64,000 nucleotides of DNA from a virus. The stretch is taken from IMG/VR virus record IMGVR_UViG_3300023210_000015, positions 45,229 to 109,228 of that record. One strand, written 5' to 3'. Shown one piece after another: positions 27,579 to 50,772 of this stretch. Position 1 is the stretch's first letter; each line of letters begins with the position of its first letter. A program made the translations under genes and the position numbers. The notes under the pieces are model-generated. The model made no database searches and was not told the DNA's origin. It worked only from the letters and a program-made list of their open reading frames with translations.

Positions 27579-29303
27579 ATGCATAAAAGAAAAATATTCA
27601 ACTTTGAATCTGTTATTTTAGATCATTTAACTATAGAAAAAGAAGGATATCCTCCTGTTCAATATAGTAATGGTTCTGCGAAATTTATTTGGGCCACCTG
27701 TAGATATTGCGGTGAACCTCATCGTTTGCGTAAATGTTTTTTCTATAGAAGCGGATCAGCATGTCACAAAGAGTGTAGAATAGAAGAACAGAAACAACAA
27801 GTGTCTCCATTCGCTGATAAAAAAGTTAGGAAAAAAGCCGAAGAAACTAATCTCAAAAAATATGGAGTTAAACATGCTGCCTCTAATCCTAAAATTCGTT
27901 CTAAAATTTCTAAAACTAAAAAAACTGAATTTTCTAAAAACAAAACGAAGCAAACGAATTTACAAAAATATGGTGTTGAAAATGTATTTCAAAATCCTGA
28001 AATAAAAAACAAAATAGCTGCTACTAACAAAAAACGCTATGGATACAAATCTCCTATTCAAAACCAGTCAATCATGGATAAAATACAAAAAACTAATCTC
28101 AATAAATTTGGTTTTATCAATCCAATGCAGAATGATGTCGTAAAAGAAAAAGCCGTAGCAACCAGTATGGACAGATATAATAAACCAAATCCTATGCAAA
28201 ATGCAAAAATTGCCAAACAAACATCTATTTCTCTTAAAACAACTATAAAAAATAATGTTTCTGGTAATTATAATTTAATCAATTTGTTGCGCGGTAAATC
28301 CTTTTGGAGTATGTTAAAAAAAGAAGATATAACGTTATTAGAAATATGTGATTATTTTAATATAAATTATGGCAGCTTAACTGCCCACTTAGTTCAAGAT
28401 GAATTTAAAAATAAATATTACAGTATTTACTCTTTCCCAACGCAGCAAAAACAAAAAGAATTAATCAATTGTATTAAAAAAATGGGGATACGCGATAATC
28501 AAATTATAATTAACACCAGAAAAGTAATTTCTCCTCTAGAACTTGACATATATATACCTCATTTAAATGTGGCTATAGAATTCAATGGAAGTTATTGGCA
28601 TTCAGAAGCAATTCTTTCTTCTATAGAGGCTAGAAATAAACACATACATAAAACGAAATTATGCCGAGATAAAGGAATATTTTTATTACATATCTTTGAG
28701 AATAATTGGCATCAGAAAAAACAACAACTATTGAACTATATAAAGTCCAAACTGGGTCTAAATCAAAATAGAATCGCGGCCAGAAAATGTACGATAGATC
28801 ATACGAATGCTAAAGATTTTATCGACACTAATCATATACAGGGGTATGGTCGTGGAACAATAAAATATTTCAATTTGAGATATGACGGAAAAATTATTGG
28901 CAGCATGACAGCTTCGTTGCATCACAGACAAAAAGACGCTAATGTTATTTTAAATAGACTTTGTTTCTGTAGTGATACGACTATACAAGGAGGAGGGCGT
29001 AGGCTATTTAAGTATTTTGAACTTTGGGCACGAGAACAAAATTATAAAAATATTATATCGTGGTCAGATAATAGTTGGACTGACGGTAACATATATCCTA
29101 TTTTGGGATTTAAAAAAGAGCATGCATATGGACCTGATTATTTTTACTGGGATATAAAAAGTAAAAAATATTTCTCTAAACAATCTAAACAAAAGAGTAA
29201 AATTGGTTGTCCAAAAGATATGACGGAACATGAATATTGTATGCAGATGGGTCTTTACAGAATTTGGGATTGCGGAAAAATTCGTTGGATATATGATTTG
29301 TAA
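27579..29303 (+). CDS. free-standing homing endonuclease (PD-(D/E)xK, Hef-like) with 'TNLxKYGV' repeats and a GNAT-like C-terminus
   Basis: ELDIYIP..NVAIEFNGSYWHS; repeats TNLKKYGV/TNLQKYGVEN/TNKKRYG; ends RIWDCGK.RW. Confidence 0.8.
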   Translation: MHKRKIFNFESVILDHLTIEKEGYPPVQYSNGSAKFIWATCRYCGEPHRLRKCFFYRSGSACHKECRIEEQKQQVSPFADKKVRKKAEETNLKKYGVKHAASNPKIRSKISKTKKTEFSKNKTKQTNLQKYGVENVFQNPEIKNKIAATNKKRYGYKSPIQNQSIMDKIQKTNLNKFGFINPMQNDVVKEKAVATSMDRYNKPNPMQNAKIAKQTSISLKTTIKNNVSGNYNLINLLRGKSFWSMLKKEDITLLEICDYFNINYGSLTAHLVQDEFKNKYYSIYSFPTQQKQKELINCIKKMGIRDNQIIINTRKVISPLELDIYIPHLNVAIEFNGSYWHSEAILSSIEARNKHIHKTKLCRDKGIFLLHIFENNWHQKKQQLLNYIKSKLGLNQNRIAARKCTIDHTNAKDFIDTNHIQGYGRGTIKYFNLRYDGKIIGSMTASLHHRQKDANVILNRLCFCSDTTIQGGGRRLFKYFELWAREQNYKNIISWSDNSWTDGNIYPILGFKKEHAYGPDYFYWDIKSKKYFSKQSKQKSKIGCPKDMTEHEYCMQMGLYRIWDCGKIRWIYDL

Positions 29304-45549: not shown

Positions 45550-45929
45550 ACTGGTATACTTTAATAAAATCCGCCGCCCCAATAGGGCCAAACATGCAAG
45601 GTCTAGGTTATCTCGCTATTGGTCATGATTTCGATGTAGGAATCGAAAATCATTTATGGTTTTTAACTCTCGATGGAGATTTTATTTCTAAATTATCTAC
45701 AGGGCCATATGATGTACACGCTGGATGGGACAAGTGGGTGAGAAATGATAATCTAGGGACTATTGTTTCGGAAGGAAGAGTCGAGTGTGTAAAGGGGCAA
45801 AATGGATGTAAAGCTTCTTTGGTTCTTCGTCAAACTTTAACTCCACACTATAAAGAATTTGCTAGAAAAAAATCCTCTAAGATGCTGGATGAGAAGTTCA
45901 ATAACCCGGAAATATTAGTGATGAGATGA
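45546..45929 (+). CDS. MNWY-tagged hypothetical protein; paralog of the N-terminal domain of 50769..51491
   Basis: Y..IGH, GR.E and LDEKF.NP.IL are shared. Confidence 0.65.
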   Translation: MNWYTLIKSAAPIGPNMQGLGYLAIGHDFDVGIENHLWFLTLDGDFISKLSTGPYDVHAGWDKWVRNDNLGTIVSEGRVECVKGQNGCKASLVLRQTLTPHYKEFARKKSSKMLDEKFNNPEILVMR

Positions 45930-48556
45930 ATTGGTATAAAACAATTTTTGCTGGGGCACAAGGAGATTATCTTCATTCGCTAGGAGCGAGTCAAGAAATC
46001 ATAGCTTATATTGTTTCTCAACCAAACATGCAATATCTCATTAATGCTTTTCGCAAGAATCCGCAGATGACATTAGAGCAAGTTAAAGAAATTAGCAATC
46101 CTAATAAAAGAGAATTAACAGAACTAGAATCTACGTTTATCGATACTTGTTGGGCCAATTCAGGGGTAGGAAAATGGGCGTTAATACAACTACAAAAAAT
46201 GTTTAGGACCGCTGAACGTACAGGTCAATCATTTTATCCTGATGTTTCGACAGCAATAGCTTACCGTTTAACTCTACAACATACTTGTGGCAGAATGAAC
46301 GAAGTCGGACAACAGTTCGCACAAATTGGAGACTGGGTTGTTCGTAGTGAAGACGAGTTCGATCTGTTAAATTATACCTATGAACAAGCCGTAGTCGCTT
46401 CTGATGCTTGGCATGAGCGAATGGCAAAAGGAGGAGCAGGAAAAGAATATGAAGAAAAAAATATTGTCTATGGACCAGAGTGGGTAAATAGGGGAGGGGA
46501 TAAGATCGACGAATTTGAAGGTTGGACCATACAAAATGTTAAAACTGCAAATGATTTAGAAGTAGAGGGACATTTGATGGATCACTGTTTTGCACCAGGG
46601 GCATTGGTAAGGACCAAGAGCGGATATAAGTCGATAGAAGACATCAAAACCGGGGAAGAAGTGCTATGTGAAGGGGGTGGTTTCAACCGGGTATTGAGAC
46701 TGTTCAAAAATCAATATAATGGGCCAATGATTAAATTTGCAACAAGGTTTGGCATCAAGGAAACATTGGTTACTTTAAATCATGAATTTGTGACCATGAT
46801 AAAAAACCAGAAACATTTTGAAAGTAAACACCAGTGTCGTAAACACATATGCGGACAGGTAAAACACAATTCAAACGAAATACATAATTTAAAGTGGGAA
46901 AAAATTGGCAATTTAAATTCATGGAGCTATTTACTGTCAACTGTTCCAAGGCAATTTGCTGATATCAATACTGTTAAAGTACCAGAGCAATATACAAATA
47001 GTAGAAGAAGAGGAAACAGGATATATACTGTGAATTCTGATTTTTTATGGATAATCGGCATGTTTATAGCAGAAGGGAGCGCTACTGGTGATCAAATTTC
47101 TTTTGGGCTTTCCAAGGATGAACGAAATTATGTAGATAAAATAATGTCATTCTTTACTGATAACGGATTTTATGCTAAAATTAGAAAAGATAAAGAAGAC
47201 TATGGTGGTATGGTTGTTGTTATAAGGAGTAGAATGCTTTCTGACTGGTTTTCAAATTGGCTAGGTAAAGGGTGCGATAATAAACATATCCCATCTGAGT
47301 TATTAAATCTCCCGAATGAGAAGGTGTATCACTTATATAAGGGGGTACTAGATGGAGATGGCTGTGAATCTCATAAGGTTTTAAATCAAACTTCGCCTGT
47401 TCTTGCTCTTCAGATGACAGAAATTGGTCTTCGACTGGGAATCGTGCCGACAATTTCTCATCGCACTAATAAGGGTAAAAAAGATACATATCCTATTGAG
47501 GGAATAGACACATCTTTAAGTTACAAAAAAAGTAAAGTTGAGAAACAAAATATATGGAACTTAGATAATAACCTGTTAATCCATCCACACGTATTCGAAA
47601 AGGTAAAATATACTGGTCCTGTGTATAATTTAGAGGTAGAAAACGTTCATTCCTACACGATACAAAACATATTAGTCCATAATTGTGTCGGTGGTTATTG
47701 TGATGATGTAGAACGTGGAGACTCAATAATATATTCATTGCGTGATCCTAAAAATATGCCTCATGTAACTATAGAGGTTGATGGTCATGAGGGCGGCGTA
47801 AATCAGGTGCAGGGTCACAGCAACAGTGAACCAAAAGATAAATATAAAGACATGATCAAACACTGGATTCAAAATGATAAAAATTCTCCTAAATTTATGG
47901 ATGATCCGGAAGAAGGTATACTTAAAGGATATTGGGAGTTAAGAAACTTAAGAGATATGAGTCCAAGATTGTTATTGGAATCCCTAGAGAGCCGTGTCGC
48001 TGGAGGAGATGAATATGGTCTGAGGCATGGTGATATTTATTATGATATGACAAATGTATTTGATCTTGCCTGGCGTTCTGTTGGAAAAAATGCACAGTAT
48101 GGCATGTATGCTGGCGATGGCGGTCTTGGTGAATTTATGGTTGAGGCTGCTTTAGATAGTGACGATTTATCTAAAGAAGATGATAATAAAAAATGTCTTC
48201 GTAGTCTTATTGACGAGATGACACAGGTGGAAGAAGATTCCAGAGACGAGTATCAACGACAGCATATAGATGTCGGTATTCCATATCCGCAAGAAGAAGA
48301 ATATGAAAACCCGGCAGAATATGAAGAAGCTTTGGAAGATTATCAAAAACAAGAGGATGAATTATTAAGTGGGATGTTCCCTTTTCCTTGGGTAACATTG
48401 CTTTGGCAAAAAATTCAAGAAAAATTTCAACAAAGATATGATCAAGATTTTACCAAATGGTATGAAGAGTACCAAGAACGAAGAAGAGAAGAGATGAAAG
48501 AACGAGAGAGACTGCGTGAACTAAACCGTGAACCAAAAACGATATTGGATGATTGA
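45926..48556 (+). CDS. MNWY-tagged PcfJ-like domain protein with an intein
   Basis: DL..EG..M.H|CVGGY...IYSLRD....PHVTIEV...QVQG..N..P. Confidence 0.78.
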   Translation: MNWYKTIFAGAQGDYLHSLGASQEIIAYIVSQPNMQYLINAFRKNPQMTLEQVKEISNPNKRELTELESTFIDTCWANSGVGKWALIQLQKMFRTAERTGQSFYPDVSTAIAYRLTLQHTCGRMNEVGQQFAQIGDWVVRSEDEFDLLNYTYEQAVVASDAWHERMAKGGAGKEYEEKNIVYGPEWVNRGGDKIDEFEGWTIQNVKTANDLEVEGHLMDHCFAPGALVRTKSGYKSIEDIKTGEEVLCEGGGFNRVLRLFKNQYNGPMIKFATRFGIKETLVTLNHEFVTMIKNQKHFESKHQCRKHICGQVKHNSNEIHNLKWEKIGNLNSWSYLLSTVPRQFADINTVKVPEQYTNSRRRGNRIYTVNSDFLWIIGMFIAEGSATGDQISFGLSKDERNYVDKIMSFFTDNGFYAKIRKDKEDYGGMVVVIRSRMLSDWFSNWLGKGCDNKHIPSELLNLPNEKVYHLYKGVLDGDGCESHKVLNQTSPVLALQMTEIGLRLGIVPTISHRTNKGKKDTYPIEGIDTSLSYKKSKVEKQNIWNLDNNLLIHPHVFEKVKYTGPVYNLEVENVHSYTIQNILVHNCVGGYCDDVERGDSIIYSLRDPKNMPHVTIEVDGHEGGVNQVQGHSNSEPKDKYKDMIKHWIQNDKNSPKFMDDPEEGILKGYWELRNLRDMSPRLLLESLESRVAGGDEYGLRHGDIYYDMTNVFDLAWRSVGKNAQYGMYAGDGGLGEFMVEAALDSDDLSKEDDNKKCLRSLIDEMTQVEEDSRDEYQRQHIDVGIPYPQEEEYENPAEYEEALEDYQKQEDELLSGMFPFPWVTLLWQKIQEKFQQRYDQDFTKWYEEYQERRREEMKERERLRELNREPKTILDD
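46586..47683 (+). mobile_element. intein with LAGLIDADG endonuclease in the PcfJ-like domain (366 aa)
   Basis: MDH|CFAPGALVRT; VTLNHEF; IGMFIAEGS and GVLDGDG; ends VYNLEV...LVHN|C. Confidence 0.9.
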
Positions 48557-49084: not shown

Positions 49085-49098
49085 AACTATAATGTAGT

Positions 49099-49818
49099 AT
49101 GGAACGTAAGAGTTTTTGTTTGGCAGAATTAATGATAGCCATTGGGATAATGGCTATTGGTCTGATAATGGCAGCAACTTTGTTTCCCGCTGCGATACGA
49201 GAACATAGCAGATCAGCGAGAAGCGTCATGGGGACAATTATCTCTGAAAATGCCTTAGAAACTGTTATGGCTACTCTAAAGCACCCTCTACAAGATAACA
49301 GTGGTACAATTGTCGAAGCGGATATGCTTAATTGTACGGAAAAAGTTCAACCACCTGAAGTTAGGAGATATCCAGCCGGTAGTGCGGATACAAAATTTGG
49401 TTTTCTCGTTTTCGCCAGAGTAAAGACCGAAGATAAAAACGACTATATCTTATCAATGGTTTCTTTTTGCAAATCAGACAAAGATAATACTATTGAGGCG
49501 ATAAAATTGACAGGTGTTACCATACCGTCAGGTGATAAAACTTTTGATATTAGTGGTTATGTGCCATCGGTTGGAGATAGATATAGAATTATTGGTTCGC
49601 CAGTAATAGCCCCCAGTGGTTATTACGCCACGATTATAGGCATTGATGGAGATAATGCTGTGTTAGATCATACGATTATAGGCGTTGATTCTGTTAATCC
49701 GTGGATTATTGTAGAAAAAAGTGGGGCTGCTTTTGCTGGCACTCGCAGTCCTGCTCTGATCGTATTTATGACACGTATGGCTTTGCCAACACGCCCAGCA
49801 GAGAAAGTGCCTGCATAA
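49099..49818 (+). CDS. prepilin-type N-terminal cleavage/methylation domain protein (minor pilin/pseudopilin-like)
   Basis: RKS|FCLAELMIAIGIMAIGLIMAATLFP, with Glu at +5 and a hydrophobic helix. Confidence 0.75.
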   Translation: MERKSFCLAELMIAIGIMAIGLIMAATLFPAAIREHSRSARSVMGTIISENALETVMATLKHPLQDNSGTIVEADMLNCTEKVQPPEVRRYPAGSADTKFGFLVFARVKTEDKNDYILSMVSFCKSDKDNTIEAIKLTGVTIPSGDKTFDISGYVPSVGDRYRIIGSPVIAPSGYYATIIGIDGDNAVLDHTIIGVDSVNPWIIVEKSGAAFAGTRSPALIVFMTRMALPTRPAEKVPA

Positions 49819-49824
49819 ACATTT

Positions 49825-50280
49825 CTAAGACGGTGCTAAAGTCCCGTGTATCCTCGGGACCAATTAGCAGCTTGTCGTCTAGCGAAAAGGCGATGTCGCG
49901 TGGTGTGTATCCTCGCCACAAAAAATGGATTCAGTGGCCCTAGACTAGACTGGGGCAAACCATGTATAAACTATGCAGATTACTCAATTACATGTATAGG
50001 CAGGAGAGAGACGCACCGGCTTGACTACTTCCCCGGTGTTATCGTTTGAATCCTGACGCTGCGATTGGAACTCGTTGGAGATAACAGCGTTAACAAATGA
50101 AAACTACCCGTATGGGATAATATCGTTGATATAGAGCTTTAAGCACAATGTCTTCTATATTATTGCTCCAGTAGTGAAGCCCACAATATACCATTGAGGC
50201 ATCACGCTTCCTTGCTTACTTTATTGTTTTTTAAAGTAAAAACTTGGAAGTAGATGTGCGCCAACAATGCCCATTTCGGC
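49825..50280 (+). ncRNA. candidate large structured RNA (unassigned)
   Basis: At least 8 consecutive stems, two with the identical loop TGTATCCT; internal G-U pairs favour the + strand; no credible ORF. Confidence 0.55.
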
Positions 50281-50325
50281 ATATATCTCTAAAGGAGAAA
50301 TTTATAATTCGGCGAAAATAATACT

Positions 50326-50772
50326 ATGAACTGGTATAAGTACGCCAATACGGAACGTAAAATCTTTAGAAATCCTGATAAAGCAACTTTTCAAGCTCTC
50401 TTGGCAGAATATAATGGTGGGATGAGAGGAGCATTGATGTTTACTGGTGATCTATATGTAGGAAATGGGGATTACCATAGTCATGCAGATTTGCTAAAAG
50501 GACTTAAAGGTATCAAAGGAAATGAGTTTTTTCGATTAAATATTGCTAGTATAAGTGAATTAAATGTTGAAATATGGTTAGATTATCATGAAATATTTGA
50601 AGACGAAGATGACCCTGATAGCAAAATAATTCTACCAGATTCATATGCAGTAGATGTGGCAAATAAAATCAAGGGAGCTAATGCTATAAAAAGAGCTTTT
50701 GGTACTCCTCCGCAAGTTAAAGTTATCGTTTACGATTACGATGCGTTTATACATATAGAAGAAACGATATGA
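50326..50772 (+). CDS. MNWY-tagged hypothetical protein
   Basis: Starts MNWYKYAN. Confidence 0.65.
   Translation: MNWYKYANTERKIFRNPDKATFQALLAEYNGGMRGALMFTGDLYVGNGDYHSHADLLKGLKGIKGNEFFRLNIASISELNVEIWLDYHEIFEDEDDPDSKIILPDSYAVDVANKIKGANAIKRAFGTPPQVKVIVYDYDAFIHIEETI

Follow-up and report, generated by a model that had tools for sequence, protein, structure and literature searches.

A candidate large structured RNA with two identical hairpin loops in a gene-free gap of an uncultured marine giant phage

The longest gene-free gap in the 64,000-nt stretch of phage DNA analyzed here (the window) can best be read as a functional structured non-coding RNA of about 450-500 nt, encoded on the + strand and belonging to no catalogued family. 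We assign this reading a probability of roughly 0.55. The gap was found to be non-coding, to fold above chance with a bias toward the + strand, to share a high G+C content with the phage's genes for tRNAs and RNase P RNA, and to be kept in a sister phage. The sequence-only reading had proposed a large phage non-coding RNA at this site, possibly a protein sponge or a multimerising RNA. The general proposal survived, in that the gap is non-coding, structured, without a known family and conserved, but the sponge was not supported, and neither was the multimerising RNA. As to its form, a stand-alone or processed stable RNA is the version we tentatively favor, while a structured RNA with a cis effect on the neighboring messages seems a rather less likely version. 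The gap is a well-founded candidate rather than a proven RNA gene.

A G+C-rich gap between a pilin-like gene and a tagged gene

The DNA comes from an uncultured marine giant phage, and the window corresponds to bases 45229-109228 of a 109-kb IMG/VR virus record. The completeness of the record was estimated at 23%, so it represents a fragment of a giant phage genome. Near-identical DNA was present in many seawater metagenome runs, and no RNA run was listed among the sequencing runs containing DNA of this phage. The phage is not T4-like, and its large terminase is at most 25% identical to that of any cultured phage. Its genes tile the + strand, including all neighbors of the gap. The features around the gap are as follows.

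49087-49094 (+): CTATAATG, a promoter-like box separated by 5 nt from the start codon of the pilin-like gene
49099-49818 (+): pilin-like gene P0001, the upstream neighbor, with a prepilin-type N-terminus; its relatives carry PF07963
49819-50325 (+): gene-free gap, the candidate structured RNA; 507 nt from stop codon to next ATG
50326-50772 (+): downstream gene P0002, 148 aa, with its own ATG at 50326 and an MNWY N-terminal tag

The pilin-like gene ends with a TAA stop at 49816-49818. Its nearest genomic relatives lie in Planctomycetota metagenome-assembled genomes, which suggests that the phage probably infects Planctomycetota. The MNWY start of the downstream gene is common to other genes of the phage. 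Upstream of these genes, a PcfJ-like protein (window 45926-48556) is interrupted by an intein with a LAGLIDADG domain, whose Hint and intein-splicing matches fell below the Pfam cut-offs.

The gap had been marked at 49825-50280 as the longest non-coding stretch, and it is indeed the window's longest stretch without an ORF of at least 100 aa, with slightly wider limits (49819-50325). The accompanying claim that it is richer in G+C than its flanks was also borne out. The G+C content was 0.44-0.50 over 49600-50200 and 0.28-0.39 in most flanking windows, and it averages 36.5% over the phage genome. The rise already begins in the pilin-like gene, about 200 nt inside it. Where the record has further G+C-rich gaps, they contain tRNA genes and the RNase P RNA.

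The gap had no coding signal, each of the six frames being interrupted by stops. Its longest ORF (67 aa) shared no words with any of 5.8 billion predicted proteins, implying that it was never called by gene callers, even on the phage's own contigs. A small protein from a 16-codon mini-ORF at 49893 was rejected on the basis of three amino-acid changes and a frameshift in the relative described below. The 10-mer GATGTGCGCC has only two copies in the record, at window 50253-50262 and at G000:C1:7807-7816, both intergenic and on the + strand.

The box in front of the pilin-like gene indicated how the gap might be transcribed. CTATAATG has 14 + strand copies against 2.7 expected (five times over-represented), many of them just upstream of genes, and occurs at 18 further places in the record besides 49087-49094. 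Among others, copies precede homing-endonuclease-type genes at 27579 and 37005. The spacing of only 5 nt from the ATG suggests that the pilin-like message is leaderless, and the copy at 49087, as a putative promoter, is the likely start of a transcript entering the gap. The candidate RNA would then be transcribed with or right behind the pilin-like gene and would either form the tail of its message or be processed out. The full word CTATAATG is absent from the gap itself.

Predicted folding and its strand preference

The stems listed by the sequence-only reading were all present, and each recurred in the local minimum-free-energy (MFE) folds. The RNA is predicted to fold as a chain of about eight hairpin modules, set out here with their folding z-scores.

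49828-49880 (+): hairpin 1, 18 bp in three tiers, with loop box 1; MFE -22.6 kcal/mol, z -4.14 (+) and -4.37 (-)
49900-49919 (+): hairpin 2, 6 bp, carrying loop box 2 (49906-49913), seen in the local fold
49937-49956 (+): hairpin of 7 bp with one G-U pair; z -2.71 (+) and -0.66 (-)
49971-49999 (+): hairpin of 7 bp with one G-U pair; z -1.59 (+) and +1.22 (-)
50001-50090 (+): two adjoining stem modules (50001-50055 and 50056-50090); MFE -30 kcal/mol, z -1.76 (+) and -1.20 (-)
50114-50166 (+): long AU-rich imperfect hairpin; z -1.14
50206-50251 (+): two-tier hairpin with a U-rich loop; z -3.45 (+) and -2.73 (-)
50259-50314 (+): three-way module; z -1.72; its second hairpin pairs UCUCU with a Shine-Dalgarno-like GGAGA

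The preference for the + strand noted from the letters was reproduced by the energies. The whole gap gave a z-score of -3.79 to -4.0 on the + strand (two runs) and -2.35 on the - strand. Thirteen control windows of 507 nt from the same DNA had a mean z of -0.78 (sd 1.29, minimum -3.16). Since one control window reached -3.16, the folding signal of the gap is only moderate. The z-scores of the local modules were negative for 8/8 on the + strand, and 6/8 folded worse on the - strand, the summed module MFE being -125.8 kcal/mol (+) versus -104.1 kcal/mol (-). This advantage of the + strand relies on G-U pairs. On the + strand, z was below zero for every sliding 120-nt window starting at 49780-50260, with a value of just -0.64 for the last of them inside the gap, and windows starting at 49700, 49740 and 50300, which mostly cover the flanking genes, had z near zero or positive.

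Hairpin 2 deserves a separate comment. It is missing from the full-length MFE structure, in which its stretch pairs with 49999-50017 instead. In the sister phage, a 2-nt deletion at 50012 falls within this alternative helix and within an internal loop of the local fold, which argues against the MFE helix and fits the local hairpins better.

The strand comparison also bears on the suggestion of a sponge for CsrA/RsmA-type proteins, in which a minus-strand RNA would expose AGGAUACA loops. Both loops do read AGGAUACA inside - strand hairpins, and hairpin 1 folds as well on that strand (z -4.37). Yet known sponges carry many such loops, while the gap would offer just two with AGGA, both confined to the - strand; the whole gap is less structured there (z -2.35 against -3.8), as are six of the eight modules; and the C>T change at 49831 in the sister phage would produce an A-C mismatch in a - strand RNA. 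The minus-strand box that was thought to point into the region, GCCGAATT, is present at 50306-50313 (-), but most of the six copies that the record contains are intragenic, so the word is no promoter class. No - strand promoter word was found for the gap, whose neighbors are all on the + strand. Taken together, we regard a sponge as highly improbable.

Inverted repeats may also act as DNA, for example as a protein-binding, recombination, packaging or replication site. Hairpin 1 and the 50206-50251 hairpin are near-perfect palindromes whose folding is equally good on either strand, which favors such an element, and the gap borders a swapped gene block with a joint at 50339. Against this, 6/8 modules are clearly better on the + strand through their G-U pairs, and the gap is G+C-rich relative to its flanks rather than AT-rich, with no turn of the cumulative GC skew. 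Neither the element nor its 5' domain has a second copy in the 109-kb record, and no recombinase gene was recognized beside the gap. A DNA-level element is therefore considered an unlikely explanation.

Conservation of the gap in a sister phage

Contigs of two public runs, X18 and X19, hold a sister phage. The two agree at every listed site, and the comparison rests on this one diverged lineage. When the listed differences were applied to the window, they reproduced exactly the C-terminus of P0003, an 84%-identical homologue of the pilin-like gene, identifying the sister phage as the P0003 lineage.

The gap was found to be less diverged than the gene in front of it. In X19, 15/273 gap positions differed (5.5%), compared with 40/276 positions of the pilin-like coding sequence (about 14-15%; Fisher p 5e-4). 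The last 240 nt of the pilin-like gene had 16 changes on 58.7 silent sites (rate 0.27) and 19 differences in amino-acid-changing codons; measured against this silent-site rate, the X19 divergence of the gap gave p below 1e-19. In X18, the gap differed at no more than 47/521 positions (at most 9%). Other alignable flanking pieces differed by 11-20%. The low divergence was spread over the gap, with 6.5% in 50006-50175, and the drop started exactly at the stop codon of the pilin-like gene, with gap and gene on one contig in the relative.

The changes were unevenly spread within the gap. The most strictly kept part lies over hairpin 1:

49832-49898 (+): unchanged block of 67 nt over hairpin 1; P about 0.003-0.02 at the gap's own change rate

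Five gap substitutions are among those listed (up to 49922). Two of them, at 49831 and 49899, affect paired positions, and the other three are in a loop or in linkers. Both paired changes are C>T opposite G, so that pairing is kept as G-U on the + strand only; at 49831, this turns a C-G pair of hairpin 1 into U-G. The relative also has seven indels of 1-2 nt each in the gap, which no reading frame would tolerate. In the 50206-50251 hairpin, one of them removes a single nt from the loop and another adds a single nt at the first pair of the inner stem, adjoining the internal loop. Set against about 43 substitutions, 7 indels in the gap are not a low proportion, a point against the RNA reading.

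Similarity to the sister phage stops abruptly at 50339, just behind the MNWY codons, where a different gene (MNWYKIANNGDIDW...) follows. The shared N-terminal tag (50326-50339, MNWYK codons) seems to serve as a recombination joint for cargo-gene swaps. The low divergence of the gap could come partly from phage mosaicism, as part of a younger shared block, given that the joint at 50339 shows exchange at this very place.

This mosaicism raises the question of whether the gap might be a functionless leftover, for instance a decayed gene that arrived with the pilin-like gene and looks conserved because of a recent block exchange. The mosaic nature of phage genomes with the nearby joint, the fairly frequent indels, and the rise in G+C that begins inside the pilin-like gene are all compatible with such an origin. 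They have to be set against the divergence drop at the stop codon on a single contig of the relative, and against the searches for a source. No protein remnant was detected by tblastx against pilin operons of Planctomycetota and metagenomes or by six-frame reading, and a decayed gene was rejected on this ground; 401 Planctomycetota genomes contained no DNA match beyond chance-size ones in BLAST of the gap. The folding excess and the 67-nt unchanged block would also be unexpected in decaying DNA. A leftover is thus improbable.

A somewhat stronger competitor, although still an unlikely one, is an ordinary intergenic control region. Hairpin 1 would end or stabilize the pilin-like message, and the rest would be a promoter and structured leader for the MNWY-tag gene, for example one that hides the GGAGA at 50294-50298. 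Hairpin 1, where conservation is strictest, starts 10 nt behind the stop codon, TATAAT occurs at 50303-50308, and similarity in the relative continues through the start codon. The predicted fold places the Shine-Dalgarno-like GGAGA in a stem, 28 nt away from the ATG that follows, whereas elsewhere in this phage AAGGAG precedes gene starts by 6-8 nt. Nonetheless, 507 nt far exceeds the needs of a terminator and a promoter, and the low divergence extends across the gap. No terminator-like site was found in the gap, with no U run behind hairpin 1, and the full promoter word CTATAATG is missing from it. In the structured-RNA reading that we prefer, the distance and pairing of the GGAGA make a cis role on the downstream gene possible.

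Known families, twin loops and a possible RNA particle

Comparison with known RNA families agreed with the expectation that the gap would match none of them. No Rfam 15 match reached the gathering score anywhere in the window. With E up to 10, pieces of 701, 156 and 251 nt gave only chance-level matches, such as preQ1-II (19.8 bits versus 47) and 14 nt of the plastid ycf3 intron hairpin (E 2.3). There was no Rfam 15 match to GOLLD, ROOL, raiA, RNase P, tmRNA, CsrB/Rsm, group I/II introns or pRNA. RF01718 had no match anywhere in the record; RF01712 had matches elsewhere in the record at chance level and none in the gap at E up to 10.

The search has power in this DNA, as it found a reduced RNase P RNA in the same record, outside the window, with an E of 3.5e-16. 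This RNA of 226 nt (G000:C1:1206-1431 (+), equal to L018:735-960) scored 57.2 bits with the bacterial class A model (gathering score 100). The conserved blocks GAGGAAAGUC, AGAUAAAUG and CCUGCUUAC and a compensated P4 helix are present, and most of the specificity domain is missing. It adjoins tRNA genes. A single scan of 46 kb missed it because the filters are stricter on longer input. A full-text literature search returned no paper linking RNase P RNA with giant phages.

In line with the earlier impression, neither a tRNA nor a tmRNA was detected in the window by ARAGORN, which did report 11 tRNA genes elsewhere in the record, in three clusters (G000:C1:1971-21256: Lys, Arg, Leu x3, Ser x3, Cys, Gln x2). 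Another G+C-rich gap (0.52; G000:C1:26705-26880, equal to L030:6705-6880) contains tRNA-like pieces: a GGUUCGAAUCC T-arm, a matching acceptor stem, a GUA anticodon-like loop and a second T-arm-like GGUUCAAUUCC. They were called by neither ARAGORN nor Rfam and, judged by their sequence, may be odd or broken tRNA genes.

An intron had likewise been doubted, rightly so: no intron model matched, the reading frame before the gap is closed by TAA, and the gene behind it starts at a separate ATG with the MNWY tag, which is kept in the relative. An RNase P-like RNA in the gap was rejected as well, since its AAAGUCC and CGGCUU words give a poor P4 helix and the other blocks are misordered.

Searches for relatives of the gap were equally negative. 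Blastn found none among the INPHARED phages. IMG/VR yielded no relative for the two proteins that flank the gap, for the alignment of pilins or for the terminase. Three DNA patterns gave a single match there (L002), a chance one, in a tandem repeat within coding sequence of a giant virus. Among the contigs of JGI metagenomes and the genomes of GTDB, only distant Planctomycetota pilin operons were found, with nothing gap-like behind them. The 5' domain (R1), searched as a covariance model, had no match in 151 Planctomycetota genomes or the rest of the record.

The claim of two stems with the same 8-nt loop was confirmed and could be extended. The loop UGUAUCCU is found at 49847-49854 (box 1, hairpin 1) and 49906-49913 (box 2, hairpin 2), both positions being occupied by the word TGTATCCT. 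The shared word is really 11 nt long, GTGTATCCTCG, an exact repeat 59 nt apart; by our estimate, about 0.03 such repeats would be expected by chance within 507 nt. Relative to hairpin 1, hairpin 2 has three stem pairs swapped (C-G to G-C twice and C-G to U-G) but the same loop and closing pair. To judge from the letters, the same loop on swapped stems has the look of repeated recognition hairpins, and we propose that the two 5' hairpins act as paired recognition sites.

Two protein-binding hairpin systems also place one loop on different stems, the iron-responsive elements of the transferrin receptor message and boxB of the lambda nut sites. Like them, the two hairpins of the gap share the loop and closing pair, with stems that differ by compensated changes. 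Unlike them, the gap has an unrelated loop sequence without a known binding protein.

The sister phage provided a hint on how the loops might be read. The C>T change at 49911 turns AUCC in loop 2 into AUUC, and an A inserted behind 49928 turns a nearby GGAU into GAAU. These two words are complementary again.

49927-49930 (+): GGAU, candidate pseudoknot partner of AUCC (49909-49912, loop 2) across an A-rich linker, as read from the sequence

The paired change fits an H-type pseudoknot at hairpin 2 (stems 49900-05/49914-19 and 49909-12/49927-30). It is a single event, and as substitutions are listed only up to 49922, any of the about 40 changes beyond could undo the complementarity; the pseudoknot is accordingly tentative. 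Since a change in loop 2 comes with a matching change nearby, RNA pairing fits better than a fixed protein site. Box 1 was unchanged in the relative while box 2 changed, again a single observation. A candidate partner for loop box 1 is GGGAUA at 50114-50119, in the AU-rich hairpin, which is complementary to it by inspection.

By post-hoc counts, loop complements also occur elsewhere in the record. AGGATACA has 6 + strand copies versus 1.9 expected, all in the first 45 kb of the record:

G000:C1:763, 1297, 6455, 14026, 36605 and 44523 (+): copies of AGGATACA

The 9-mer GAGGATACA has 3 + strand copies versus 0.5 expected, a post-hoc count reached by 6/200 shuffles, and one of these copies lies inside the phage RNase P RNA. 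Long-range pairing between the gap and this RNA was rejected, as the duplex energy was no better than that of shuffles.

In our preferred mechanism, the loops would be read by base pairing. Loop 2 would form the H-type pseudoknot with the GGAU at 49927-49930. For loop 1, the partner would be another site of the GGAU type, located either within the RNA itself or on a different molecule. These pairings would compact the RNA into a stable particle. A specific and more speculative form of this idea, which we hold as a possibility only, is a new class of large phage RNAs in which identical loops pair with GGAU-type sites to give a doubly knotted or oligomeric particle. Such an RNA would be an analogue of the ornate phage RNAs, unrelated in sequence, and might work with the phage's RNA toolkit, which comprises the 11 tRNA genes and the reduced RNase P RNA containing GAGGAUACA, an exact complement of the loops.

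Three known RNAs invite comparison. GOLLD and ROOL, the ornate RNAs of phages and prophages, resemble the gap in being several hundred nucleotides long with many stems and in phages that also encode tRNAs. The gap is smaller, has no Rfam match, and is more than 70 kb from the tRNA genes of the record. The phi29 prohead RNA (pRNA) is likewise a phage-encoded structured RNA among virion genes. In pRNA, loops of separate molecules join through 4 bp, the model for the proposed "multimerising RNA". The gap, in contrast, is three times longer and has no Rfam match, and its loops are identical rather than mutually complementary. No family membership is supported; the gap RNA is best treated as a separate, new family that resembles the large orphan phage RNAs in kind.

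Large structured RNAs recur in big phages, and each unrelated family is a test case for their role. The present candidate comes from a phage lineage very far from cultured phages, with Planctomycetota as the probable hosts. Its length of about 0.5 kb would allow synthesis for chemical probing or cryo-EM, and its identical loops offer a clear handle for mutation.
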